A DNA stretch of 64,000 nucleotides from Escherichia coli (lineage in GTDB: Bacteria; Pseudomonadota; Gammaproteobacteria; Enterobacterales; Enterobacteriaceae), in the NCBI RefSeq assembly GCF_003334815.1, contig NZ_QOWO01000005.1, one strand, 5' to 3'. The notes below the pieces were generated by a model. The model had not been told where the DNA came from and searched no databases. It worked only from the letters and a program-made list of their open reading frames with translations. Shown here piece after piece: positions 3,175 through 34,370 of this stretch (its first letter is position 1; every line of letters starts with the position of its first letter). Position numbers and translations under genes: made by a program.

Positions 3175-6100
3175 ACCCTACCGCTGGCGTCGGGTCATCG
3201 CCTTTGTAGTCGCGTTTTACTTCCGTCACCTCATCGCCCTTCTCGTTGTGCAGATGCACTTCAAGCTGGTTAAAGGCAATGTTGATGTCGTTTTCACGGC
3301 ACAGCTGATCGATAGTACGGTTCAGCTCATCGACAGTACGACTACGGTCACGCAGTTCACGCACATACAGACGCAGCTCATGATCCAACGTGCTGGCACC
3401 AAATGCCGTAAAGAAGACTTCCGGCATTGGTTCGTGCATCACCCTTGGGTGCTCAGTCGCCGCCTTCAGTAACACTTTACGCACTTTTTCCAGATCGGAG
3501 CCATAGGCCACGCCGAGACGGATCACCAGACGCGTAGTAGTGTCAGTCAACGACCAGTTGATCAGACGCTCGGTAACAAACGCTTTGTTCGGGATGATCA
3601 CTTCTTTGCGATCGAAATCGGTAATCGTTGTCGCACGAATACGGATCTTACTTACCGTCCCCGAGAAGCTACCAATGGTTACCGTATCGCCAATACGCAC
3701 CGGACGTTCGAATAGAATGATCAAACCGGAGACGAAGTTACCGAAAATTTCTTGTAAACCAAAACCAAGACCTACGGATAATGCTGCGGCCAGCCACTGG
3801 AGTTTATCCCAAGAGACGCCCAGCGATCCGAACACCGTCATCGCACCAACAGCAATAATGATGTAGTTAAGGATGGTAGTAATGGCATACGACGCGCCCT
3901 GGCGCATATTCAGTCGCGAGAGCACCAGCACTTCCAGTAAACCAGGCAGGTTGCGAATCAACGCCCAGGCCACCATTGAGGCGATAATCGCAAACAACAG
4001 ACTGCCCATGGTGACGTTTTTCACCACCGCAGCGCCAGCTTCAGTGCCGTTGTAATGCCAGAGCGTGATGCTGTCGAGATAGCTGAACACGGTGATCAAA
4101 TCGGACCAAATTGCCCAGAACATGACACCGAACAGCGCAAACATCAGCAACATGGTAATACGCAGCGTCTGCTGGTTAACTTGCTCCAGTGCAATGGTGG
4201 GTTCTTCCGGCGGTTCAGCACCTTCTGCGCCCTCTTTCACCAGATTCTGCCGACGCGCCAGCGCACGACGCCAGGCGATACGCCGCGCCGCTACGCTTAA
4301 GCCACGCAGTACCGTCTGGTACAGCAGGTTCCAGATGATCACCAGATAAACGGTTTCAATCCAGCGTCCTGCCAGACGCAGCGTAGTGTAGAAGTAGCCT
4401 GTAGCAGTCAGCACCATCAGCGCAATCGGGATTATCGACAGCACGGTAATGGTGACCAGTCGCATGGTGTGCGACTCTTTATCACGCCAGCTTTCGCGGC
4501 ACATCGGCCATACCAGGAAGGCAATCAGCAGCAGGTTGAAGAAAATCATCGCTTGCCCCAGCACATCATCCATCAGATGCAGCGGGGAAAGTTCTGCCAC
4601 CACAGACCAGAAATGGATAGGCAGCAATGCGAGACTGATGCGGACAATTTGCCGACGCCAGTGGCTGGTCTGCTGTTCCGGCATGCCGAAGTGACGTACG
4701 GCAACGCCGTTTTTCTCCAGTACCTTCCAGCACAGGCCAAACACCAGCCAGAATATCGCCAGTTTTTTGCTGAACGACCATAGCAGTTCGCTGATGTTGA
4801 GCTGCATGGTCAACAGAATCAGGCCAACCGCGAGAATAATCAGGCACACCGGCAGCGCACGGATCAGGTCGATAAGGATCGCTTTTGGTGTGTTGAGCTG
4901 GCTGTCGTTACGCAGGGAACCCACAGCGGAAGCCAGTTTTTGTTGATACGCTTTCAGCCAGCCCAGACGCCAGTGGATCAGCCCGGCAATCAACAGCAGC
5001 GGCAAACCAGCGAGGAAAGCGATAAAAACGGCGGGCCAGGCTTTTTGCCAGTTCACCGTGATTTTCATCGACTTAAATTCATCTTTCAGGCTTTGCGGGA
5101 ACGCTTTGATCCAGTCCCAGTCCATTGGACGGTTACTGTTCACCCAAAAGATTTGCTGAGTCAGGATGGATTTCAGGTTTTTCGACACACTCATTAACTG
5201 CTGCTGGTTGATTTGCAGGTTAATGGCCATCATCAGCTGGTTACCCAACTGTTTGTTGAGTTGATCCAGCAATTCGCGACGCATATCAACCACTTGCAAT
5301 AACGCATCGTGAACTTCGCTGTTGACTTCGTTGGTGTGACCTTCTTCCAGTTTGTTGACGAACGCATCGCTCTGGAAGAGTGCATCACGCTGCTGGTTAA
5401 CTTCAAACTGTTCGAGACGCAAATCCGCGATGCGGTTGGTCATGTTTTCCAGTTCATCCGCCGAGGGCAGCGTTTGTTGTTGCTGGTAAAGGATACGAGA
5501 CAACAGCAGGCTGCCCTTCAGGACGGCAATCTGCTCTTTAATATTGCGTTCCGATTGCAGCGCCCGCTCCAGCCAGTTTTTGACTTTAATGTTTTGCTGC
5601 ATCAACTGATTACCGTTTTCAGTCGCGGTAATCAGACGCTGACTTAACTGCTGGTTAATTTCCAGTTCCTGCTTCACCAGCGGATTAGCCTGAATACGCG
5701 CGGCTTCATCCGGGGAGACGGCTTCCTGCGCCGTTTTTTCGGTTAAAGTCAGGCGCTTGCTGTTTACCGCTTCTTGCAACAGTTGTAACTGGTGCTCCAG
5801 ACGAGCGCTGTTCGCCGTCACGTAATCACGTTGCTTTTGCAAGGTATCCTGCAAGACGGTGTTCCCTTCCAGGCTTTTACGCTGCTGGTCAATCTCCGCA
5901 TTCAGCAACGCCTGCTGGGCCTGCATTAACACTTTCTGGCTGGGACGTAAGGCTGTCTCGCCGACATCAGTCCCATCCAGACGACTGCGAATTTGTTGCA
6001 GCTGCTGCGAAGCGTTATACATCGCATTTTGCACGCGTTCGGGCTGCGTCTGTAACGAAACCAGCTGGCTGTTATAAGACGCCAGATCGTTTTGTGCGTT

Positions 6101-6535
6101 TTGCAAATCGTCCAGCGCCTGGGCAACGCGAGTTTCCAGCTGGCGCAACGACAGCGTGCTCAGAATTTTGCGCGTTTCTTCGTCGTTATCGACATCGCTA
6201 AGTGCTGTTAACGCCGCGGTCGCCTGGCGCATTTTTTCCGGCGCTTCAGCGACTTTTTGCCGTAGCTGAACTGTCTCTTCTTTTATGCGATCGATTTTAT
6301 CGAGGGTGGCTAATGTATCTGTCAGATCCTGCTGCACCAGTTTGTCCTGAGCAGAAAGATCTTTTTGTTTATTTAGTGAGTCAAGTTGCGCCTGCAGGTC
6401 CGCTTTTGTCGGCAGATCACCATTCGATGACGCTCGCGCAAACGCCGTGTTCTGGCATAACAAGACAAAAACAAAAGCAATAAATGCTGAAAAAACAAAA
6501 TGCCGTGATCGTTTGTAATACTGGAACATAGTCAT
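3173..6535 (-). CDS. mscK: potassium-dependent mechanosensitive channel MscK (KefA/AefA)
   Basis: ORF 3173..6535 (-), 1120 aa; long coiled-coil periplasmic region, multiple TM helices, MscS-like C-terminal domain. Confidence 0.95.
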   Translation of the reverse strand: MTMFQYYKRSRHFVFSAFIAFVFVLLCQNTAFARASSNGDLPTKADLQAQLDSLNKQKDLSAQDKLVQQDLTDTLATLDKIDRIKEETVQLRQKVAEAPEKMRQATAALTALSDVDNDEETRKILSTLSLRQLETRVAQALDDLQNAQNDLASYNSQLVSLQTQPERVQNAMYNASQQLQQIRSRLDGTDVGETALRPSQKVLMQAQQALLNAEIDQQRKSLEGNTVLQDTLQKQRDYVTANSARLEHQLQLLQEAVNSKRLTLTEKTAQEAVSPDEAARIQANPLVKQELEINQQLSQRLITATENGNQLMQQNIKVKNWLERALQSERNIKEQIAVLKGSLLLSRILYQQQQTLPSADELENMTNRIADLRLEQFEVNQQRDALFQSDAFVNKLEEGHTNEVNSEVHDALLQVVDMRRELLDQLNKQLGNQLMMAINLQINQQQLMSVSKNLKSILTQQIFWVNSNRPMDWDWIKAFPQSLKDEFKSMKITVNWQKAWPAVFIAFLAGLPLLLIAGLIHWRLGWLKAYQQKLASAVGSLRNDSQLNTPKAILIDLIRALPVCLIILAVGLILLTMQLNISELLWSFSKKLAIFWLVFGLCWKVLEKNGVAVRHFGMPEQQTSHWRRQIVRISLALLPIHFWSVVAELSPLHLMDDVLGQAMIFFNLLLIAFLVWPMCRESWRDKESHTMRLVTITVLSIIPIALMVLTATGYFYTTLRLAGRWIETVYLVIIWNLLYQTVLRGLSVAARRIAWRRALARRQNLVKEGAEGAEPPEEPTIALEQVNQQTLRITMLLMFALFGVMFWAIWSDLITVFSYLDSITLWHYNGTEAGAAVVKNVTMGSLLFAIIASMVAWALIRNLPGLLEVLVLSRLNMRQGASYAITTILNYIIIAVGAMTVFGSLGVSWDKLQWLAAALSVGLGFGLQEIFGNFVSGLIILFERPVRIGDTVTIGSFSGTVSKIRIRATTITDFDRKEVIIPNKAFVTERLINWSLTDTTTRLVIRLGVAYGSDLEKVRKVLLKAATEHPRVMHEPMPEVFFTAFGASTLDHELRLYVRELRDRSRTVDELNRTIDQLCRENDINIAFNQLEVHLHNEKGDEVTEVKRDYKGDDPTPAVG

Positions 6536-6662
6536 GATGAATGAAGGTTTCTGAACCTGAAGAACGACCTGAAAAAGTCAAACCGCAAGAATATCACGAC
6601 GCAGTGAACCAGAATAGCAACGACGAAAATGTCCAGGAAAAATCCTGGAGTCAGATTCAGGG

Positions 6663-7310
6663 TTATTCGTTAGTGGCAGGATTACGAAGCGTGGGGCACA
6701 GGAGATACATCTCCAGTAAGATGGCAACGTAATCGCGGGCTTCTTTTTTAAGATCAAAAGATTGCGGGGCAAAGAGCCAGTTTTCCATCAGGCCGGAAAT
6801 ATAGCCGCGCATAATAATTGCTGCGCGACGCGTCATTAAATCCGCAGGCAACATTTTCGCTTCAATACAATGTTTTAACGTTTGTTCTATACGGTCATAA
6901 CTTTCCAGACAGAGATTACGTTGTGCCTGTTGCACAACAGCCATTTCTCCGACAAATTCGCATTTGTGGAATATAATCTCCATCAATAATCGACGCCGTT
7001 CTTCTGTCACCGTGGATTCAAGAACATGAATTAATATCTCTCTTAATACTGAGAGTGGATCGCCAGGGAATTTTGCCTGATACTCAAGCTCTAGTTCACC
7101 AATATTGGATTCTGACAGTTCCCAGATCTCACTGAACAAATCCGACTTGTCTTTAAAATGCCAGTAGATTGCACCGCGCGTAACGCCAGCTGCTTTTGCA
7201 ATCTCGCCCAGCGAGGTGGATGATACCCCCTGCTGTGAGAAAAGACGTAGAGCCACATCGAGGATGTGTTGGCGCGTTTCTTGCGCTTCTTGTTTGGTTT
7301 TTCGTGCCAT
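6663..7310 (-). CDS. acrR: TetR-family repressor of acrAB
   Basis: ORF 6663..7310 (-), 215 aa; divergent from acrA; TetR-type HTH near N-terminus. Confidence 0.95.
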
Positions 7311-7338
7311 ATGTTCGTGAATTTACAGGCGTTAGATT

Positions 7339-7362
7339 TACATACATTTGTGAATGTATGTA
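7339..7362. promoter_or_regulatory. AcrR operator palindrome in the acrR-acrA divergent promoter region
   Basis: tacatacatt-tgtg-aatgtatgta: perfect 10-bp inverted repeat arms with 4-bp spacer, read directly. Confidence 0.85.
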
Positions 7363-7451
7363 CCATAGCACGACGATAATATAAACGCAGCAATGGGTTT
7401 ATTAACTTTTGACCATTGACCAATTTGAAATCGGACACTCGAGGTTTACAT

Positions 7452-8645
7452 ATGAACAAAAACAGAGGGTTTACGCCTCTGGCGGTCGTTCTGATGCTCT
7501 CAGGCAGCTTAGCCCTAACAGGATGTGACGACAAACAGGCCCAACAAGGTGGCCAGCAGATGCCCGCCGTTGGCGTAGTAACAGTCAAAACTGAACCTCT
7601 GCAGATCACAACCGAGCTTCCGGGTCGCACCAGTGCCTACCGGATCGCAGAAGTTCGTCCTCAAGTTAGCGGGATTATCCTGAAGCGTAATTTCAAAGAA
7701 GGTAGCGACATCGAAGCAGGTGTCTCTCTCTATCAGATTGATCCTGCGACCTATCAGGCGACATACGACAGTGCGAAAGGTGATCTGGCGAAAGCCCAGG
7801 CTGCAGCCAATATCGCGCAATTGACGGTGAATCGTTATCAGAAACTGCTCGGTACTCAGTACATCAGTAAGCAAGAGTACGATCAGGCTCTGGCTGATGC
7901 GCAACAGGCGAATGCTGCGGTAACTGCGGCGAAAGCTGCCGTTGAAACTGCGCGGATCAATCTGGCTTACACCAAAGTCACCTCTCCGATTAGCGGTCGC
8001 ATTGGTAAGTCGAACGTGACGGAAGGCGCATTGGTACAGAACGGTCAGGCGACTGCGCTGGCAACCGTGCAGCAACTTGATCCGATCTACGTTGATGTGA
8101 CCCAGTCCAGCAACGACTTCCTGCGCCTGAAACAGGAACTGGCGAATGGCACGCTGAAACAAGAGAACGGCAAAGCCAAAGTGTCACTGATCACCAGTGA
8201 CGGCATTAAGTTCCCGCAGGACGGTACGCTGGAATTCTCTGACGTTACCGTTGATCAGACCACTGGGTCTATCACCCTACGCGCTATCTTCCCGAACCCG
8301 GATCACACTCTGCTGCCGGGTATGTTCGTGCGCGCACGTCTGGAAGAAGGGCTTAATCCAAACGCTATTTTAGTCCCGCAACAGGGCGTAACCCGTACGC
8401 CGCGTGGCGATGCCACCGTACTGGTAGTTGGCGCGGATGACAAAGTGGAAACCCGTCCGATCGTTGCAAGCCAGGCTATTGGCGATAAGTGGCTGGTGAC
8501 AGAAGGTCTGAAAGCAGGCGATCGCGTAGTAATAAGTGGGCTGCAGAAAGTGCGTCCTGGTGTCCAGGTAAAAGCACAAGAAGTTACCGCTGATAATAAC
8601 CAGCAAGCCGCAAGCGGTGCTCAGCCTGAACAGTCCAAGTCTTAA
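7452..8645 (+). CDS. acrA: multidrug efflux periplasmic adaptor (membrane fusion protein)
   Basis: ORF 7416..8645 (+); trimmed to MNKNRGFTPLAVVLMLSGSLALTGC (lipoprotein signal), giving 397 aa. Confidence 0.95.
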   Translation: MNKNRGFTPLAVVLMLSGSLALTGCDDKQAQQGGQQMPAVGVVTVKTEPLQITTELPGRTSAYRIAEVRPQVSGIILKRNFKEGSDIEAGVSLYQIDPATYQATYDSAKGDLAKAQAAANIAQLTVNRYQKLLGTQYISKQEYDQALADAQQANAAVTAAKAAVETARINLAYTKVTSPISGRIGKSNVTEGALVQNGQATALATVQQLDPIYVDVTQSSNDFLRLKQELANGTLKQENGKAKVSLITSDGIKFPQDGTLEFSDVTVDQTTGSITLRAIFPNPDHTLLPGMFVRARLEEGLNPNAILVPQQGVTRTPRGDATVLVVGADDKVETRPIVASQAIGDKWLVTEGLKAGDRVVISGLQKVRPGVQVKAQEVTADNNQQAASGAQPEQSKS

Positions 8646-11860: not shown

Positions 11861-12362
11861 GCATAACCTACGAACATTAAGGAGTAATTGAACCACCAAC
11901 TCAGGATCTCATACGAAAACCAGTATTAACCACGGATAAAATTCATAAAAAATACTGATTGTTAGTTAATTTATATTAAGTAGCGCTAATAGATTTAATA
12001 ATCCATAATCATTTAGAGGCTATTCTTAATTATTTGCGGTAATTCTTTATTCATTCCTCGGTTATTACGTCATATTCAGAGCAATCCTGGTATTAGTGTC
12101 ACCAATTTCATCTGGCGATAATCCTGAAATGTTATGAATAGTTCGAGCAAACTGCTTTTACCTGCTGCGGGTTAGTGCTAGTATGAAAAAGTGAGTCCTG
12201 TCCCGCTTCCTTCCTAATTGTAATTTTTCGTAATAATGCGATGAAAACCTGCAAAGAGTGGCTTATAGTTAAGCTAACAAACGAGAGGGCAAGTCCAGGT
12301 CAGTAAGTTTTTTCCATCCCGAAAGGTGTCCGTTAGTTCAACCGCTAAGAAGGGGACGCGTT

Positions 12363-12737
12363 ATGGATGAATACTCACCCAAAAGACATGATATCGCACA
12401 GCTTAAGTTTCTCTGTGAAACCCTGTATCATGACTGCCTTGCAAACCTTGAAGAAAGCAATCATGGCTGGGTAAACGACCCAACCTCGGCGATCAACCTC
12501 CAGTTGAATGAACTGATTGAGCATATTGCGACCTTCGCACTTAATTACAAAATTAAGTATAATGAAGACAATAAGCTCATTGAGCAGATCGACGAATATC
12601 TGGATGACACCTTTATGTTGTTCAGTAGTTATGGTATTAATATGCAGGATCTTCAGAAATGGCGGAAGTCAGGTAATCGACTATTCCGTTGTTTTGTCAA
12701 TGCGACGAAAGAGAATCCTGCGAGTTTATCTTGTTAG
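12363..12737 (+). CDS. tomB: Hha toxicity modulator TomB (YbaJ)
   Basis: ORF 12363..12737 (+), 124 aa; immediately upstream of hha. Confidence 0.9.
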
Positions 12738-12762
12738 AATTATTACAACCATAGGTAGAAGT

Positions 12763-12981
12763 ATGTCCGAAAAACCTTTAACGAAAACCGATTATTTAAT
12801 GCGTTTACGTCGTTGCCAGACAATTGACACGCTGGAGCGTGTTATCGAGAAAAATAAATACGAATTATCAGATAATGAACTGGCGGTATTTTACTCAGCC
12901 GCAGATCACCGCCTCGCCGAATTGACCATGAATAAACTGTACGACAAGATCCCTTCCTCAGTATGGAAATTTATTCGCTAA
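12763..12981 (+). CDS. hha: haemolysin expression modulator Hha (H-NS partner)
   Basis: Within ORF 12517..12981; trimmed to [72 protein letters not shown], 72 aa. Confidence 0.93.
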
Positions 12982-13152
12982 TAAATAATTCGCTTTCGGA
13001 GCTATAACCGGCTGTTTATTAAGAATTTTATACTTTTTCGCCATGAAGACATACCCTATGTGATCTTTATCACACAGATGTAATGGGAACGTTCTCTTCA
13101 CTGACTTTTCGTCTTACTGTGTTGCCGCATTTTCAGCAACCGGAGGTCAGTA

Positions 13153-13704
13153 ATGAGCACAGAAAAAGAAAAGATGATTGCTGGTGAGTTGTATCGCTCG
13201 GCAGATGAGACGTTATCTCGCGATCGCCTGCGCGCTCGTCAGCTTATTCACCGATACAATCATTCCCTGGCGGAAGAGCACACATTACGCCAGCAAATTC
13301 TCGCTGATCTATTCGGTCAGGTGACAGAGGCTTATATTGAGCCAACGTTTCGCTGTGACTATGGCTATAACATTTTTCTCGGTAATAATTTTTTCGCCAA
13401 CTTCGATTGCGTGATGCTTGATGTCTGCCCTATTCGCATCGGTGATAACTGTATGTTGGCACCAGGCGTTCATATCTACACGGCAACACATCCCATCGAC
13501 CCTGTAGCACGTAATAGCGGTGCTGAACTGGGGAAACCCGTCACCATCGGTAATAACGTCTGGATTGGCGGACGCGCGGTCATTAACCCTGGTGTGACCA
13601 TTGGTGATAACGTCGTGGTAGCCTCAGGTGCAGTTGTCACAAAAGATGTCCCGGACAACGTTGTCGTGGGCGGTAATCCAGCCAGAATAATTAAAAAATT
13701 GTAA
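13153..13704 (+). CDS. maa: maltose O-acetyltransferase (hexapeptide-repeat acyltransferase)
   Basis: ORF 13153..13704 (+), 183 aa; hexapeptide-repeat region [13 protein letters not shown]. Confidence 0.93.
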
Positions 13705-13819
13705 TCGGTTTTTCGCAACTGTTATGCAAAATTGTGGTAGATCTGTTACTTCCCCTCTACTATTCCCACGTTAAAATAGGGTGTTCCCTGGAAAGTTGCA
13801 GATACCACGAAGGCAAACG

Positions 13820-14290
13820 ATGACCGAAATACAACGCCTGCTGACCGAAACGATTGAGTCTCTGAATACCCGCGAAAAACGCGACAACAAACCCCGCTTT
13901 AGTATCAGTTTTATCCGTAAACATCCGGGGCTGTTTATCGGTATGTACGTTGCTTTTTTTGCCACCCTGGCGGTGATGTTGCAGTCCGAAACGCTGTCAG
14001 GCTCTGTCTGGCTACTGGTTGTATTATTTATCCTGCTTAATGGTTTCTTCTTTTTCGATGTCTACCCACGCTACCGCTATGAAGATATCGACGTGCTGGA
14101 TTTCCGCGTTTGCTATAACGGCGAATGGTACAACACGCGCTTTGTACCTGCCGCGCTGGTTGAAGCCATCTTGAACTCTCCGCGTGTCGCGGATGTTCAT
14201 AAGGAACAACTGCAAAAAATGATCGTCCGTAAAGGTGAACTGTCTTTTTACGATATTTTTACCCTCGCTCGCGCCGAATCAACATCTTAA
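13820..14290 (+). CDS. ylaC: inner-membrane protein of unknown function
   Basis: ORF 13781..14290 (GTG-initiated in track); trimmed to ATG at 13820 ([10 protein letters not shown]...), 156 aa, two predicted TM segments. Confidence 0.85.
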
Positions 14291-14447
14291 GTTAGGGTTA
14301 CATACCAGGCGTAAAGCTCTGCGCCTGGTCAAATGACAATGATCGTTTCCACCCATCACTTCATGAAATACCAGCTCTACCTCCTTATCTCCAGCCAGCC
14401 TTTTTCCACAATCAGATATACTTTCCCTACACTGTGTTAATAAGGAT

Positions 14448-16004
14448 ATGCTGGTGAGAACACGACATCTGGTCGGCCTTATTTCGGGAGTACTGATTCT
14501 TTCAGTATTGCTGCCTGTCGGCTTAAGCATCTGGCTGGCCCATCAGCAGGTAGAAACATCGTTTATTGAAGAGCTGGATACCTATTCCTCCCGCGTCGCT
14601 ATTCGAGCCAATAAGGTGGCGACACAAGGGAAAGATGCGCTGCAGGAGCTGGAAAGATGGCAAGGCGCTGCCTGTAGCGAAGCCCATCTCATGGAAATGC
14701 GTCGGGTATCTTACAGTTATCGCTATATTCAGGAAGTGGCTTATATCGATAACAACGTTCCCCAGTGTTCGTCTCTGGAGCATGAAAGTCCGCCCGATAC
14801 CTTCCCCGAGCCAGGTAAAATTTCGAAAGATGGTTATCGTGTCTGGTTAACATCGCATAACGATTTAGGCATTATCCGTTACATGGTCGCCATGGGAACG
14901 GCACATTATGTCGTCATGATCGACCCCGCTTCCTTTATTGATGTCATTCCCTATAGCTCATGGCAAATTGATGCCGCCATTATTGGCAATGCCCATAACG
15001 TTGTCATAACCAGCAGCGATGAAATTGCTCAGGGAATTATTACCAGGCTACAAAAAACACCCGGTGAGCATATCGAAAATAATGGAATCATTTACGATAT
15101 CCTGCCCTTACCGGAGATGAATATTTCGATCATCACATGGGCTTCAACGAAAATGTTGCAGAAAGGCTGGCATCGGCAAGTCTTTATTTGGTTACCGCTC
15201 GGGTTGGTGATTGGCCTGCTGGCAGCGATGTTTGTGCTGCGTATTTTGCGCCGTATTCAGTCACCGCATCATCGGCTGCAGGATGCTATCGAAAATCGTG
15301 ATATTTGCGTGCACTATCAGCCGATTGTCTCCTTAGCCAATGGCAAAATTGTCGGTGCTGAGGCACTGGCGCGCTGGCCGCAGACAGACGGTAGTTGGTT
15401 GTCACCAGATAGTTTTATTCCGCTGGCACAGCAAACGGGCCTTTCTGAGCCATTGACGCTACTGATTATAAGAAGCGTCTTTGAAGATATGGGCGACTGG
15501 CTGCGTCAGCATCCACAGCAGCATATTTCGATCAATCTTGAATCCCCCGTGCTCACCTCGGAAAAAATCCCGCAATTGCTGCGTGACATGATCAATCACT
15601 ATCAGGTTAATCCCAGACAGATCGCGCTTGAACTCACTGAACGCGAGTTTGCCGATCCGAAAACCAGCGCCCCGATAATTTCTCGCTACCGGGAGGCGGG
15701 CCATGAAATTTATCTTGATGATTTTGGTACGGGGTATTCAAGTTTAAGTTATTTACAGGATCTGGATGTCGACATTCTGAAGATCGATAAATCTTTCGTT
15801 GATGCGCTGGAATATAAAAATGTCACGCCGCATATCATCGAAATGGCAAAAACACTGAAACTGAAAATGGTAGCGGAGGGAATCGAAACCAGTAAACAAG
15901 AAGAGTGGTTACGCCAGCATGGCGTGCACTACGGTCAGGGCTGGCTCTACAGCAAGGCATTACCGAAAGAAGATTTCTTACGCTGGGCCGAGCAACATTT
16001 GTGA
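14448..16004 (+). CDS. pdeB: c-di-GMP phosphodiesterase (EAL domain) PdeB/YlaB
   Basis: ORF 14448..16004 (+), 518 aa; N-terminal TM/periplasmic sensor region plus C-terminal EAL domain (ELTE motif). The true start may be the GTG two codons downstream (14454), which would give 516 aa. Confidence 0.9.
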   Translation: MLVRTRHLVGLISGVLILSVLLPVGLSIWLAHQQVETSFIEELDTYSSRVAIRANKVATQGKDALQELERWQGAACSEAHLMEMRRVSYSYRYIQEVAYIDNNVPQCSSLEHESPPDTFPEPGKISKDGYRVWLTSHNDLGIIRYMVAMGTAHYVVMIDPASFIDVIPYSSWQIDAAIIGNAHNVVITSSDEIAQGIITRLQKTPGEHIENNGIIYDILPLPEMNISIITWASTKMLQKGWHRQVFIWLPLGLVIGLLAAMFVLRILRRIQSPHHRLQDAIENRDICVHYQPIVSLANGKIVGAEALARWPQTDGSWLSPDSFIPLAQQTGLSEPLTLLIIRSVFEDMGDWLRQHPQQHISINLESPVLTSEKIPQLLRDMINHYQVNPRQIALELTEREFADPKTSAPIISRYREAGHEIYLDDFGTGYSSLSYLQDLDVDILKIDKSFVDALEYKNVTPHIIEMAKTLKLKMVAEGIETSKQEEWLRQHGVHYGQGWLYSKALPKEDFLRWAEQHL

Positions 16005-16045
16005 ATTTTTGGGCTGACGGCACGCCGCACAGCCCGTCACGCTAC

Positions 16046-16399
16046 CTATTCGTCGATGATTGACTCGAATCCGCCATAGATCATTCGCTTGCCGTCAAAC
16101 GGCATGGACTCGCCGAACTCTTTCATCCGTGGGTCCGACATCATCTTTTGATTAGCAGCGTCGCGGACCTCTTTTGAAGGGTATTCAATCCAGCTAAAGA
16201 CAACCTCTTCATTCTCTTCCGCTTTCACCGCCATACGAAAATCGGTCACTTTGCCATCCGGTACATCGCTGGCCCAGCATTCGACAATACGAAGCGCGCC
16301 AAACTCTTTAAACAATGGCGCAGCCTTAGCGGCCATTTCCCGATAGGCATCCTTTTTATCGGCAGGAACGGCAACCACAAAACCATCAACATACTTCAT
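16046..16399 (-). CDS. ybaA: DUF1428-family protein
   Basis: ORF 16046..16399 (-), 117 aa. Confidence 0.88.
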   Translation of the reverse strand: MKYVDGFVVAVPADKKDAYREMAAKAAPLFKEFGALRIVECWASDVPDGKVTDFRMAVKAEENEEVVFSWIEYPSKEVRDAANQKMMSDPRMKEFGESMPFDGKRMIYGGFESIIDE

Positions 16400-16509
16400 C
16401 AGACATACCTCCGAAGCGTACTGCGCAGCCAGACAATTCTTGCGACGTCAGTTGTGGTTAAAGTTTAGCCATGTTGGGATTTTTTGACGAAACGGTGGGA
16501 GGCAGAAAT

Positions 16510-16623
16510 GGGTGGGGGCCCTGCCAGCTACATCCCGGCACACGCGTCATCTGCCTTGGCTGCTTCCTTCCGGACCTGACCTGGTAAACAGAGTAGCGTT
16601 GCGGGAGAACCAACAGAGCCCCC
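16510..16623 (-). ncRNA. ffs: 4.5S RNA (signal recognition particle RNA)
   Basis: Reverse complement reads GGGGGCTCTGTTGGTTCTCCCGCAACGCTACTCTGTTTACCAGGTCAGGTCCGGAAGGAAGCAGCCAAGGCAGATGACGCGTGTGCCGGGATGTAGCTGGCAGGGCCCCCACCC, 114 nt, matching recalled ffs including the conserved domain IV region. Confidence 0.95.
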
Positions 16624-16699
16624 ATTGAGAGCGTTGAGAACCAACGCGCAGGCGCATTATCACTGCTGCCCCGGCTAATTGCAACCCATCGCGTGCCAG

Positions 16700-17089
16700 A
16701 TGCTGGTTTCTTGCGCAATGCGACTTCACTCGGGCGTTTTTCCAGATTATGCTGAAAAATTACCTCAGGAAGAAAAGATGGAAAAAGAAGATTCATTTCC
16801 CCAACGCGTCTGGCAAATCGTCGCCGCTATTCCCGAAGGCTATGTCACCACTTACGGTGATGTGGCGAAACTGGCGGGATCGCCCCGCGCCGCGCGCCAG
16901 GTGGGCGGTGTGTTAAAGCGTCTCCCTGAAGGCAGCACCTTACCCTGGCACCGGGTGGTTAATCGCCACGGCACAATTTCGCTAACCGGACCGGATTTAC
17001 AGCGTCAGCGACAGGCATTACTGGCAGAAGGTGTGATGGTATCGGGAAGCGGGCAAATCGACTTGCAGCGTTATCGCTGGAACTACTAA
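16700..17089 (+). CDS. atl: DNA base-flipping protein, alkyltransferase-like (Atl/YbaZ)
   Basis: ORF 16679..17089 (+); trimmed to MLVSCAMRL..., 129 aa; start is ambiguous, with an alternative Met at 16778 (MEKEDSF...). Confidence 0.85.
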   Translation: MLVSCAMRLHSGVFPDYAEKLPQEEKMEKEDSFPQRVWQIVAAIPEGYVTTYGDVAKLAGSPRAARQVGGVLKRLPEGSTLPWHRVVNRHGTISLTGPDLQRQRQALLAEGVMVSGSGQIDLQRYRWNY

Positions 17090-17119
17090 CCCTCTCCGGG
17101 CGGAGAGGGTTAACGTCGC

Positions 17120-17692
17120 TTAATATTGCGTAGGAGCTGGAACTGCCGAAGACGGATTCACCTGAGTTGGTGAAGTCGAAGGTACGGTAGTCGTTGCGCC
17201 ACCGCTGGCCTGAACCGGCACGGCGGTTTGCTGTACCGGCACCAATGTCAGGTCGGCTTTAGTTCCGCCCTGGTTGATCACCGGCTGAACGGTATCGGTG
17301 ATAAATACCAGTTTGTCATTCACGGTAATCGCCGCACTCAACAGAATACGCGCGTTCGGCTGAACATCTGCCGGGTTAAATGGCAGAACAAAGCTGAATG
17401 GTGACTGTTTACCTTCAGTACGCACCGCTTTCTGCGCCAGCACTTTTGACGGTGCATCGGCTAACGACGCGTCAGAAAGTGTCACGGTCAGCACAGCATC
17501 AGGCGGCAGTGCGACTTTCTGACGGATCCAGACGGTACCGGAGACATTCGGTTGCTGGATAGCTGGTTGTTGTGTTGCTGAAATAGACGTATTTGCAGCC
17601 GGTGCTGGCGTCTGAATATCCGCGCTTTTATCTGCGCAAGCCGCCAACGCAATCGCAACCGCTAAACCACTGGCCATGTGCACGAGTTTCAT
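17120..17692 (-). CDS. ybaY: outer-membrane lipoprotein of unknown function
   Basis: ORF 17120..17692 (-), 190 aa; signal peptide with lipobox LAAC, Pro/Ala/Thr-rich linker. Confidence 0.88.
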   Translation of the reverse strand: MKLVHMASGLAVAIALAACADKSADIQTPAPAANTSISATQQPAIQQPNVSGTVWIRQKVALPPDAVLTVTLSDASLADAPSKVLAQKAVRTEGKQSPFSFVLPFNPADVQPNARILLSAAITVNDKLVFITDTVQPVINQGGTKADLTLVPVQQTAVPVQASGGATTTVPSTSPTQVNPSSAVPAPTQY

Positions 17693-17909
17693 TCATTTCT
17701 CCTTATTATCAATGCACCAGCGGGCTAACTTTCCTCGCCGGAAGAGTGGTTAACAAAATAGTAACGTCAACAAGTGTGGCACACATCACGCATTTCTGCC
17801 TGTAATTAGCCCGTAATTCAGACCATTGCACCCATCGGACCAGTAGCAAATTTGCGTTATACTCAACTCACTTTGGCTTGCTGCGGCAGCTTTGTTACTG
17901 GAGAGTTAT

Positions 17910-18770
17910 ATGAGTCAGGCGCTAAAAAATTTACTGACATTGTTAAATCTGGAAAAAATTGAGGAAGGACTCTTTCGCGGCCAGAGTGAAGATTTAGGTT
18001 TACGCCAGGTGTTTGGCGGCCAGGTCGTGGGTCAGGCCTTGTATGCTGCAAAAGAGACCGTCCCTGAAGAGCGGCTGGTACATTCGTTTCACAGCTACTT
18101 TCTTCGCCCTGGCGATAGTAAGAAGCCGATTATTTATGATGTCGAAACGCTGCGTGACGGTAACAGCTTCAGCGCCCGCCGGGTTGCTGCTATTCAAAAC
18201 GGCAAACCGATTTTTTATATGACTGCCTCTTTCCAGGCACCAGAAGCGGGTTTCGAACATCAAAAAACAATGCCGTCCGCGCCAGCGCCTGATGGCCTAC
18301 CTTCGGAAACGCAAATCGCCCAATCGCTGGCGCACCTGCTGCCGCCAGTGCTGAAAGATAAATTCATCTGCGATCGTCCGCTGGAAGTCCGTCCGGTGGA
18401 GTTTCATAACCCACTGAAAGGTCACGTCGCAGAACCACATCGTCAGGTGTGGATCCGCGCAAATGGTAGCGTGCCGGATGACCTGCGCGTTCATCAGTAT
18501 CTGCTCGGTTACGCTTCTGATCTTAACTTCCTGCCGGTAGCTCTACAGCCGCACGGCATCGGTTTTCTCGAACCGGGGATTCAGATTGCCACCATTGACC
18601 ATTCCATGTGGTTCCATCGCCCGTTTAATTTGAATGAATGGCTGCTGTATAGCGTGGAGAGCACCTCGGCGTCCAGCGCACGTGGCTTTGTGCGCGGTGA
18701 GTTTTATACCCAAGACGGCGTACTGGTTGCCTCGACCGTTCAGGAAGGGGTGATGCGTAATCACAATTAA
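17910..18770 (+). CDS. tesB: acyl-CoA thioesterase II
   Basis: ORF 17892..18770 (+); trimmed to [24 protein letters not shown], 286 aa. Confidence 0.95.
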
Positions 18771-18776
18771 AAAAAT

Positions 18777-18809
18777 AGCCGGAGGTGAAAACCGTCCGGC
18801 TGTTTTTTG
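18777..18809. terminator. bidirectional rho-independent terminator between convergent tesB and amtB
   Basis: Stem agccgga / tccggct flanked by an A-run upstream and T-run downstream, so the hairpin is followed by a U-run on both strands. Confidence 0.7.
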
Positions 18810-18818
18810 CAGTGCTTG

Positions 18819-20105
18819 TTACGCGTTATAGGCATTCTCGCCGTGGCTGTTGACATCCAGCCCTTCTCGCTCCTGCTCTTCCGGTACACGCAGACCAACC
18901 GTCAGATCCGCCAATTTGTAGCCGATAAATGCCACAACACCGGACCAGACGATCGTAATGGCGATGCTTTCCAGCTGTACCAGCAACTGATGGCCCATCG
19001 TCACACCTTCAGCGAAGCCCACGCCGCCCAGCGAGCTGGCGGCAAAAATCCCGGTCATGATACAGCCGACAATGCCACAAACGCCGTGCACACCGAAGAC
19101 ATCGCAGGGATCATCCACCCGCAGCAAGCGTTTGAGCATGGTAACGCCCCACAAGCCCGCCAGACCAGCTACCACGCCGATAATCAACGCGCCGCCAACC
19201 CCAATGTAGCCGCAGGCTGGCGTCACGCCGACCAGACCGGCAATCGCGCCAGAACACGCCCCCAGCAGTGAAGGCTTACCACGCAGCGCCCATTCACCGA
19301 AGATCCAGCCAAGAATTGCCGCCGCCGTTGCGACCACAGTATTCACAAATGCCAGTGCCGCGATTTCATTCGCCGTGCCCGCTGACCCGGCGTTAAAGCC
19401 AAACCAACCGATATAGAGAATGGCAGTCCCGGTGAAGACCATCGGCAGGTTGTGCGGTTTAAACGCCTCTTTACCGAAGCCCACGCGTTTTCCTATCAGA
19501 TACGCGCCCACCAGACCGGCGATTGCGGCGTTAATGTGCACCACGGTGCCACCCGCGAAATCCAGCGCACCGTGAGAAGCCAGCAAACCACCGCCCCACA
19601 CCATATGCGCAATCGGAATGTAAGAGAGCGTCAGCCATACCACCACGAAAATCAACACAGCTGAGAAGCGGATTCGTTCCGCCAGCGCCCCAACTATCAA
19701 GCCGACGGTAATGCAGGCAAACGATCCCTGAAACGCCACGTGGATATACTGATAAATGCTGCCCATCACCGCCGTCAGTTCGATGTTTTTCAGCATCAAC
19801 CAGTTAATGTTGCCGAAGAAGTTGTTGCCCTCACCAAACGCCAGCGAGTAACCGTAAACCACCCAGAGAATACAGACCAGTGCAAATGTCACCGTCACCT
19901 GCGTCAGCATCGACAGCACGTTTTTGCCGCGAATCAACCCACCGTAAAACAGGGCAATCCCCGGAATAGTCATAAACAGCACCAGCGCAGTACAAATCAT
20001 CATAAACGCATTGTCGGCTTTATCGGCCACCGCAGGTGCAGCCATTACCAGTCCCGGAAGCATCGCCAGTGAAGCAAGCCCAGTTTTTATCGTCGCTATC
20101 TTCAT
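18819..20105 (-). CDS. amtB: ammonium transporter
   Basis: ORF 18819..20105 (-), 428 aa; signal peptide plus 11 TM helices typical of Amt. Confidence 0.96.
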   Translation of the reverse strand: MKIATIKTGLASLAMLPGLVMAAPAVADKADNAFMMICTALVLFMTIPGIALFYGGLIRGKNVLSMLTQVTVTFALVCILWVVYGYSLAFGEGNNFFGNINWLMLKNIELTAVMGSIYQYIHVAFQGSFACITVGLIVGALAERIRFSAVLIFVVVWLTLSYIPIAHMVWGGGLLASHGALDFAGGTVVHINAAIAGLVGAYLIGKRVGFGKEAFKPHNLPMVFTGTAILYIGWFGFNAGSAGTANEIAALAFVNTVVATAAAILGWIFGEWALRGKPSLLGACSGAIAGLVGVTPACGYIGVGGALIIGVVAGLAGLWGVTMLKRLLRVDDPCDVFGVHGVCGIVGCIMTGIFAASSLGGVGFAEGVTMGHQLLVQLESIAITIVWSGVVAFIGYKLADLTVGLRVPEEQEREGLDVNSHGENAYNA

Positions 20106-34183: not shown

Positions 34184-34266
34184 AGAGCTCTCTCTTAGTT
34201 TAATTTCCGCCAGGTAATCAGATGACACGACTGTGCTTCACGCCATCTATTAACATGTACGTCAGT

Positions 34267-34293
34267 ATATGGGGATGTTTCCCCCACATTCAA
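34267..34293 (-). promoter_or_regulatory. lon heat-shock (sigma32-type) promoter containing the GGGG-N7-CCCC motif
   Basis: Minus strand reads TTGAAT-gtgggggaaacat-CCCCATAT, resembling sigma32 -35 and -10 elements; about 85-110 bp upstream of the lon ATG. Confidence 0.7.
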
Positions 34294-34370
34294 CGCCGAG
34301 AATAGAGGAAAAATTAAAGGGGAGATAAAATCCCCCCTTTTTGGTTAACTAATTGTATGGGAATGGTTAA

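Follow-up and report, generated by a model that had tools for sequence, protein, structure and literature searches.

The genes around ffs between maa and tesB of Escherichia coli are probably independent neighbours in the core chromosome

Six genes, ylaC, pdeB, ybaA, ffs, atl and ybaY, lie between maa and tesB on the Escherichia coli chromosome, and the question raised by this locus is whether they belong together in function or simply happen to be adjacent. We examined them in a stretch of 64,000 nucleotides from contig NZ_QOWO01000005.1 (assembly GCF_003334815.1), called the window here; positions are counted from its first nucleotide, and its given strand is the + strand. A preliminary description had singled out positions 14448-17692 as a block of under-characterised genes around ffs. 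Our analysis favors another reading, to which we assign a probability of about 90%: the segment is an unremarkable part of the E. coli core chromosome, corresponding to K-12 b0453-b0458, and it holds six functionally unrelated, separately transcribed neighbours that do not make up a system. The locus is already known as textbook K-12 core genome and has little discovery value in itself. The by-products are two start-site calls and a lead from the neighbourhoods of ybaA; of use are the correction of the atl annotation, the start of pdeB and the recognition of ybaA as a tractable protein.

Read from left to right, the segment begins after maa (13153-13704, +; RefSeq annotation of an identical genome and of K-12, given in window coordinates) with ylaC (13820-14290, +), which encodes an inner-membrane protein of 156 amino acids (aa) with two transmembrane (TM) segments, belonging to the YlaC family (PF10777). 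It is followed by pdeB, also named ylaB (14454-16004, +), whose product of 516 aa combines TM1, a periplasmic CSS domain, TM2 and an EAL phosphodiesterase domain for cyclic di-GMP (c-di-GMP). On the opposite strand are ybaA (16046-16399, -), encoding a DUF1428 protein of 117 aa with a dimeric alpha/beta-barrel (ABM-like) fold, and ffs (16510-16623, -), the gene for the 4.5S RNA of the signal recognition particle (SRP), placed by an Rfam match and by mapping the K-12 annotation 476448-476561 onto the window. The last two genes are atl (ybaZ; 16778-17089, +), encoding an alkyltransferase-like DNA base-flipping protein of 103 aa, and ybaY (17120-17692, -), whose 190-aa product is an outer-membrane lipoprotein with a YscW-like domain and a low-complexity linker and tail. 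RefSeq annotates tesB (+) as the 3' neighbour of ybaY in window order.

The identities, order and orientations of these genes were confirmed by the RefSeq and K-12 annotation and by Pfam and Rfam, where the CSS-motif plus EAL, DUF1428, DNA_binding_1, YscW, YlaC and RF00169 models agree with every label. The same gene order is found in K-12 MG1655 (b0453-b0459) and in the RefSeq record of a 100%-identical genome, in which atl is listed as an MGMT-family protein. In NCBIfam, YbaA and YbaY were both without a family, all matches of PdeB stayed below the curated cut-offs, Atl matched only a generic ogt superfamily model, and the sole match of YlaC, to NuoH, was sub-threshold and spurious. The outline of the presumed block needs some adjustment. 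Its genes are present in the range given above, but ylaC lies outside it and 14448 is not the start of pdeB. Likewise, the orientations alternate only roughly: the actual order is + + - - + -, with ylaC/pdeB and ffs/ybaA co-oriented. The term under-characterised suits ylaC, ybaA and ybaY, which have no assigned function, but not atl and, for the most part, pdeB. For these two of the five protein-coding genes, mechanisms and clear roles have been published.

Using megablast, we found window positions 12000-20000 in 5425 of 5426 complete E. coli genomes, in many of them at 100% identity; sub-segments showed 97.4-100% identity across these genomes. The encoded proteins are all identical to those of K-12 except YbaY (99%). 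When compared with E. albertii and Citrobacter youngae, all five coding sequences displayed a ratio of non-synonymous to synonymous substitution rates (dN/dS) of 0.01-0.08. Such low values point to purifying selection, so we regard all five as real, constrained genes. The GC content (0.47-0.57 in the segment, 0.516 in the whole window) stays near the window mean, and thus no island signature is seen. We also considered a defence island, which was ruled out by the PADLOC defence-system models giving zero matches. Besides ffs, a permissive Rfam scan of 13600-18000 returned only a chance-level rnk_leader match (E = 0.81) on the hairpin between atl and ybaY and no further RNA family, and a repeat search yielded only short matches at chance level.

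If the genes are unrelated neighbours, they should not depend on shared transcripts, and the suggestion that they form independent transcription units was borne out. Three hairpins separate them. The one after ylaC (14304-14329, +; -21.9 kcal/mol, z = -3.9, none of 200 shuffled sequences as stable) is terminator-like, with the T run absent; a second one (16000-16041; -17.8 kcal/mol, z = -2.1) lies between the convergent genes pdeB and ybaA, and a third (17087-17112; -19.7 kcal/mol, z = -3.7, again 0 of 200 shuffles as stable) between the convergent genes atl and ybaY. Conserved promoter-like elements precede pdeB and atl and are described with these genes below. For the opposite strand, we used the Cappable-seq transcription start sites (TSSs) from the supplement of PMC4782308, which cover the K-12 + strand (corresponding to the - strand of the window); the conversion of coordinates was verified against -10 elements. 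In this set, ybaA and ffs have separate TSSs. That of ybaA is at 16453 (-; position 475842 of U00096.2, score 19.8), 54 nt 5' of its ATG, and that of ffs is at 16649 (-; position 475646, score 217.7), in agreement with the promoter TTGCAA-17-GATAAT (16684..16656, -) found by a promoter scan. Because of these TSSs, promoter-like elements and hairpins, the units appear independent even where ylaC/pdeB and ffs/ybaA share their orientation.

We then asked how far the arrangement holds outside of E. coli. A scan of a genome collection with YbaA produced 80 loci, in which all neighbours from the window were scored. The order hha-maa-ylaC-pdeB, convergent with ybaA, is retained in Escherichia and Citrobacter, while among the surveyed loci ffs and ybaA are adjacent only in Escherichia. 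In Citrobacter, 2.2-2.9 kb with a MocR-type regulator and a membrane protein lie between them. At two of these loci (L006, 2794-4935; L010, 2268-4918), the insertion consists of a 475-aa MocR/GntR-type regulator dependent on pyridoxal phosphate and a divergent membrane protein of ~200 aa; L010 carries an extra open reading frame (ORF) of 83 aa in it. Other Enterobacteriaceae retain the pdeB-ybaA pair alone, with the ffs-side genes missing from their loci, and in the Serratia, alpha- and beta-proteobacterial and Myxococcus loci ybaA occurs without any other gene of the segment. The phyletic ranges of the single genes differ accordingly. YlaC matched 591 entries in a set of 5.8 billion proteins; in another of 1.84 billion, clustering at 50% left 88 representatives. 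By its sequence relatives, it appears essentially restricted to Enterobacteriaceae. YbaA has at least 8000 relatives, with 60-78% identity in alpha- and betaproteobacteria. Synteny is thus conserved across E. coli but decays within the Enterobacteriaceae, by insertions in Citrobacter and by genes missing from the loci of other members, and a block in the functional sense finds no backing.

These data also bear on the idea that the genes are co-regulated as one functional module, perhaps a stress island for the envelope or for c-di-GMP with pdeB at its centre. Sigma-S dependence has been reported for both pdeB and ybaY, the products PdeB, YlaC and YbaY are all envelope proteins, and hha-maa-ylaC-pdeB-ybaA are syntenic in two genera. 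However, the gene-to-gene differences in phyletic distribution, the Citrobacter insertions and the missing ffs-side genes of other Enterobacteriaceae do not fit a module, promoter-like elements or TSSs and hairpins set every unit apart, the composition is normal without a defence or island signature, and atl and ffs have unrelated cytoplasmic roles. We therefore consider a module highly improbable and retain the reading of unrelated neighbours, which we follow gene by gene below.

The closest apparent link is that between ffs and ybaA. ffs matches Rfam RF00169 at 16519-16615 (-) with 68.1 bits (gathering score 40) over the full model (1-97), which identifies its transcript as the 4.5S RNA of the SRP. 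ybaA starts 110 nt 3' of ffs on the same strand, there is no strong T-run terminator after ffs, and names such as 'RNA signal recognition particle 4.5S RNA' have been given to DUF1428 proteins, with a remark to this effect in Pfam. Could ybaA then be functionally tied to ffs or the SRP? Such a tie seems to us hardly credible, since ybaA has its own TSS 54 nt before the ATG, the adjacency to ffs is confined to Escherichia (with the 2.2-2.9 kb and two genes in between in Citrobacter), and blastn detected no ffs near ybaA in 60+ other loci. In addition, the fold of YbaA is an ABM-like barrel of the kind that holds small molecules, not an RNA-binding fold. The SRP names on DUF1428 proteins seem to have been carried over from the annotation of the adjacent ffs. 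As a separate observation, a MarA/SoxS/RamA motif from chromatin immunoprecipitation sequencing (ChIP-seq), GCCCTGCCAGCTACA, which had been assigned to 'ybaZ' in Salmonella, falls inside ffs (16519-16540); the very high transcription of this gene may have produced the ChIP peak as an artefact.

What, then, does YbaA do? The protein matches DUF1428 (PF07237, E = 2.6e-48) and displays the ferredoxin-like beta-alpha-beta barrel fold; crystal structure 2okq has a sequence identical to it. A 2025 preprint reported that YbaA binds ciprofloxacin directly, with a dissociation constant of 1 uM, at Glu40 in its pocket, and this residue is invariant in our DUF1428 alignment. Further invariant stretches belonging to DUF1428 itself are VPDGKVTDF, FSW.E.P and DPRM. 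The fold relatives are the ABM/Dabb/NIPSNAP barrels (SnoaB, ActVA-Orf6, YgiN, LsrG, IsdG/MhuD), of which YgiN binds menadione; the ligand reported for YbaA is ciprofloxacin. However, YbaA shares only 9-16% identity with them and DUF1428 is a separate Pfam family; moreover, the ABM enzymes are cofactor-independent oxygenases or isomerases, whereas the reported activity of YbaA is ciprofloxacin binding only. Alphaproteobacteria have tandem DUF1428-DUF1428 fusions of 185-204 aa, many of them cut at contig ends (P0001-P0008, P0057, P0064), which would fit a dimeric barrel unit as in YbaA. When compared with YbaA, these fusions outscore the match of YbaA to itself.

The neighbourhoods of ybaA elsewhere offer a further hint. 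Outside the Escherichia/Citrobacter group, ybaA is part of tight same-strand gene strings (gaps of 0-130 nt) in 49 of 63 loci (L014 and L020-L077, with ybaA at about 5001-5351 in each). Its partners in these strings are VOC/glyoxalase, PF06983, AHSA1/SRPBCC, DUF899, GST and RibD_C genes, adjoined by a regulator of the MarR, HxlR or ArsR type, and at least four architectures can be distinguished. In Serratia, the PF06983 gene begins 18-53 nt after ybaA. PF06983 also includes YjdN of E. coli, the second ciprofloxacin binder in the 2025 preprint. A BLAST search with YjdN against the ORFs neighbouring ybaA matched at only two loci with 28% identity, so the neighbouring PF06983 genes belong to the same Pfam family but to a subfamily other than that of YjdN.

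From the fold, the pocket, the bound ligand and these distant neighbourhoods, we infer that the role of YbaA is most likely the binding or conversion of a small molecule; it would bind, and possibly convert, a planar aromatic compound within the xenobiotic or small-molecule stress repertoire. It is possible, though we hold this only tentatively and think it less likely true than false, that YbaA and the PF06983 family including YjdN are partners in a widespread string for small-molecule detoxification or binding under MarR, HxlR or ArsR control, of which E. coli keeps both members as unlinked singletons. If true, this partnership could explain why it is exactly YbaA and YjdN that capture ciprofloxacin in live-cell chemoproteomics, and YbaA would have as its natural ligand a planar compound of quinone or quinolone type, which it would bind or convert in the ABM-like pocket around Glu40. 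With its extreme conservation, crystal structure, drug ligand and VOC/PF06983 association, ybaA is the most tractable of the three genes ybaA, ybaY and ylaC.

Upstream of ffs and transcribed away from it, atl presents a different problem, namely its start codon, which had been flagged as ambiguous. Comparison resolves it in favor of ATG 16778, giving a protein of 103 aa. In an alignment of Escherichia, Citrobacter and Pseudocitrobacter, this ATG is universally conserved, with the Shine-Dalgarno (SD) sequence AGGAAG (16767-16772) 5 nt upstream. A phylogenetic footprint from the same three genera shows further conserved elements before it, all on the + strand: a palindrome TTGCGCAA (16711-16718), a -35-like TTCACT (16725-16730) and, after 17 nt, a -10-like TATGCT (16748-16753). 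TTCACT-17-TATGCT is the putative atl promoter, which would place the TSS near 16760.

The K-12 annotation has a longer protein of 129 aa from ATG 16700 (a variant of this reading would give 123 aa from ATG 16718). Its N-terminal extension (16700-16777, +; peptide MLVSCAMRLHSG) lies in a frame without stops from TTG 16679 onwards in E. coli and open in several Citrobacter species too, and the K-12 RefSeq record lists the full 390 nt. Nevertheless, we rate the long form as quite unlikely. An in-frame TAA stands two codons before the ATG at two Citrobacter loci (L011, L013) and two in-frame stops occur in Pseudocitrobacter (L007); because of these upstream stops, a long Atl is excluded there. Neither 16700 nor 16718 has an SD sequence, and the extension shows 58-65% amino-acid identity against ~90% in the core. 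Its dN/dS is 0.5-0.67 with a dS of 0.33-0.53, compared with 0.03 and 2.2 for the core, and thus resembles non-coding DNA. Moreover, a mere 51 nt separate ATG 16700 from the TSS of ffs, and the codon precedes the conserved -35/-10-like pair; the TSS predicted from this pair, near 16760, would come after it. The 103-aa form is the one called by the annotation pipeline PGAP in every genome inspected, and it is at its N-terminus that the Pfam domain and all solved homologues begin. The K-12 record of 129 aa is therefore probably too long, and its 26 additional codons appear to be the regulatory region between ffs and atl. Such an over-long annotation affects constructs and promoter studies.

The function of atl was counted among the poorly understood ones, a description that does not hold. 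Atl consists of a single DNA_binding_1 domain (PF01035; residues 33-112 when numbered on the 129-aa form and 7-86 on the 103-aa form) and lacks the N-terminal AGT domain. In its PWHRV motif (residues 56-60), Trp replaces the catalytic Cys of PCHRV, as in most proteins of this type. Among solved structures, 2kif and 3gva come closest; the PDB alignments span the whole 103 aa. E. coli alkyltransferase-like (ATL) protein was reported to bind O6-alkylguanine with nanomolar affinity and to flip it, without transferase, glycosylase or endonuclease activity, and to contact UvrA and UvrC, promoting nucleotide excision repair (PMC10779285). By this literature and the motif verified here, Atl would flip O6-alkylguanine into its Trp-bearing pocket and pass the lesion on to UvrA/UvrC. 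The domain layout and PWHRV are shared with the known ATL proteins (S. pombe Atl1, 3gva; Vibrio parahaemolyticus, 2kif; Thermus TTHA1564), from which Atl differs only in annotated length (129 aa in the K-12 record, 103 favored by comparison).

The start of pdeB had been considered ambiguous as well. An alignment of the upstream regions, which includes Pseudocitrobacter, shows an initiator codon conserved at 14454, which is GTG in the Escherichia and Citrobacter loci, whereas those of Leclercia and Enterobacter have ATG. The SD sequence AAGGA (14442-14446) is 7 nt 5' of this GTG. ATG 14448, on the other hand, is specific to Escherichia; it is in frame two codons before the GTG and only 1 nt past the SD. 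The comparison thus points to GTG 14454, not ATG 14448, as the predicted start. An element GATATACTTT about 30 nt before the start is conserved from Escherichia to Citrobacter, as is the SD. The putative pdeB promoter has the -10-like TATACT (14417-14422, +). The gene has been reported to be under sigma-S control (PMC5897775). A weak antisense TSS (14435, -; score 3.8, Cappable-seq) lies within its 5' untranslated region.

In PdeB, Pfam recognises the CSS-motif domain at residues 40-244 (1.9e-53) and EAL (8.8e-66), and hydropathy places TM segments at 3-31 and 241-269, flanking a periplasmic domain of ~200 aa. The only periplasmic cysteines are Cys74 and Cys105, the latter followed by Ser-Ser (the CSS motif). 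Judging by its motifs, the EAL domain should be catalytically competent, as the set is intact (EAL303, INLE360, ELTE393, DDFGTG422, KIDK443, EGIE475, GQGW494). PdeB is one of five named CSS-domain EAL phosphodiesterases, the others being PdeC, PdeD, PdeG and PdeN (PMC5897775). It has the same TM1-CSS-TM2-EAL layout, both cysteines and the intact EAL motifs, and no structural difference from them was found.

The periplasmic signal of PdeB had been described as open. The input itself, the periplasmic thiol/disulfide state, is largely known (PMC5897775), because the experiments on the disulfide and on DegP/DegQ included PdeB itself. A DsbA-dependent CSS disulfide that lowers activity was shown for PdeC and confirmed for chromosomally tagged PdeB (Herbst et al. 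2018, PMC5897775). Dithiothreitol or a dsbA mutation leads to DegP/DegQ-dependent proteolytic processing of PdeB, and the disulfide-incapable variant PdeB-ASS is more active in macrocolony assays (PMC5897775). Following this work, with the sequence features verified here, a Cys74-Cys105 disulfide made by DsbA would hold PdeB in a low-activity state; upon reduction, TM2-mediated dimerisation would activate the EAL domain and at the same time expose the protein to DegP/DegQ processing (PMC5897775).

YbaY had been labelled a Pro-rich lipoprotein. Its lipobox LAAC with Cys19 and an Ala at position +2 is consistent with outer-membrane sorting. Pro indeed amounts to 10-11% (11% in the mature protein) and is found mainly in the linker and C-terminal tail, but Ala, Val, Thr and Gln are similarly frequent. 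The linker is of low complexity and the 40-aa tail is rich in V/P/T/Q/S. Between them, YscW (PF09619) matches residues 46-150 over the full length of the model (E = 9.7e-40), and the PDB entry 5wec ('Lipoprotein') aligns over 93 residues (E = 7e-17).

The full-length YscW match, the lipobox and the +2 Ala raise the question of whether YbaY is a pilotin, that is, a lipoprotein of the YscW/ExsB type (PF09619) that brings a secretin to the outer membrane. The genomic context argues against this. Its neighbours are atl and tesB at all Escherichia and Citrobacter loci, with no secretin or type III secretion gene adjacent and no secretin in the 8 kb examined; the absence of a nearby secretin is where YbaY departs from what is expected of a pilotin. 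ybaY is present in essentially every E. coli genome examined, including K-12, for which a working type III system is not known. Its regulation is osmotic and sigma-S dependent, and the literature terms the protein poorly characterised. Compared with YscW/ExsB pilotins, YbaY is likewise a lipoprotein with a full-length YscW domain but has the extra linker and tail and is a stress-induced core gene without secretin context. We consider a pilotin function unlikely. The preferred view is that YbaY, as an outer-membrane lipoprotein induced by sigma-S and by osmotic stress, probably protects the envelope or binds a partner. ybaY is induced by osmotic shock via RpoS and an activator site in common with yjbJ (Reg-Seq preprint), and it is an OxyS target. 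A ybaY mutant of Providencia is attenuated and sensitive to antimicrobial peptides and resembles mutants in lipopolysaccharide. An osmotic-stress activator footprint has been placed in the ybaY promoter in the ybaY-tesB intergenic region (17693-17909; Reg-Seq preprint), and the Cappable-seq data have a weak TSS at 17710 (score 1.7, exponential phase).

ylaC is the gene with the fewest clues. Its ATG at 13820 is conserved, and relatives have in-frame stops upstream of it. YlaC matches PF10777 with E = 1.5e-70 and is the founding member of that family, characterised by two TM helices (segments at ~35-56 and 60-84) and, in the cytoplasmic C-terminal domain, a conserved R-x-C-Y-N-G-E-W motif with invariant R96, C98, Y99, G101 and W103. 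The gene has a dN/dS of 0.06. A confident structure model, with a predicted local distance difference test (pLDDT) score of 85, retrieved zero fold relatives, and nothing could be learned from the contexts of distant homologues, which lie on short contigs or next to unrelated genes (mgtC/cspA). According to the literature, YlaC is a substrate of FtsH and its level goes up when HflK/C are missing, a ylaC mutant is mildly sensitive to boric acid, and expression responds to ofloxacin and hypothiocyanous acid (HOSCN). YlaC could perhaps be a small regulatory or adaptor membrane protein, but this is a weak suggestion.

No observation contradicted our reading of the segment, but several caveats apply. 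ExcludonFinder lists ybaA-pdeB and ybaY-ybaZ as convergent excludons with overlapping transcripts (PMC12288877), and therefore functionally unrelated neighbours may still interfere with each other's expression. The promoters proposed for pdeB and atl were both deduced from conservation, and the roles given to YbaA, YbaY and YlaC are indirect deductions. For YbaA in particular, the knockout displayed neither a phenotype in the minimum inhibitory concentration of ciprofloxacin nor an SOS phenotype (2025 preprint), and the neighbourhood counts are not phylogenetically independent, though at least four architectures recur.

A few observations concern strain variation and adjacent parts of the window. 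In some E. coli strains, the segment contains IS4 or IS1 insertion sequences (hits H1-H5, H11 and H41 to window 12000-20000). In H41, ybaA is apparently split by IS1A, and in H11 maa is split by IS1B; since these genes are interrupted in some strains, gene loss appears to be tolerated. One locus labelled E. coli (L003, NZ_JAATUR010000032.1, 5395-8630) is a mosaic, in which maa, ylaC and pdeB have 90-92% protein identity, a divergence like that of E. albertii, while the flanks from ybaA through amtB (99-100%) and hha (97%) are close to the window. This type of divergent maa-ylaC-pdeB allele is absent from the complete genomes, all 5425 of which have at least 98% identity there. A fairly strong Cappable-seq TSS (13691, -; score 16.3) lies antisense within the 3' end of maa, exactly 7 nt past the promoter-like ATAACA-16-TACAAT (13725..13698), which suggests an antisense transcript over maa. 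Elsewhere in the window, Rfam identified the small RNA sraA (RF02029, 106.7 bits) at 34255-34350 (+).

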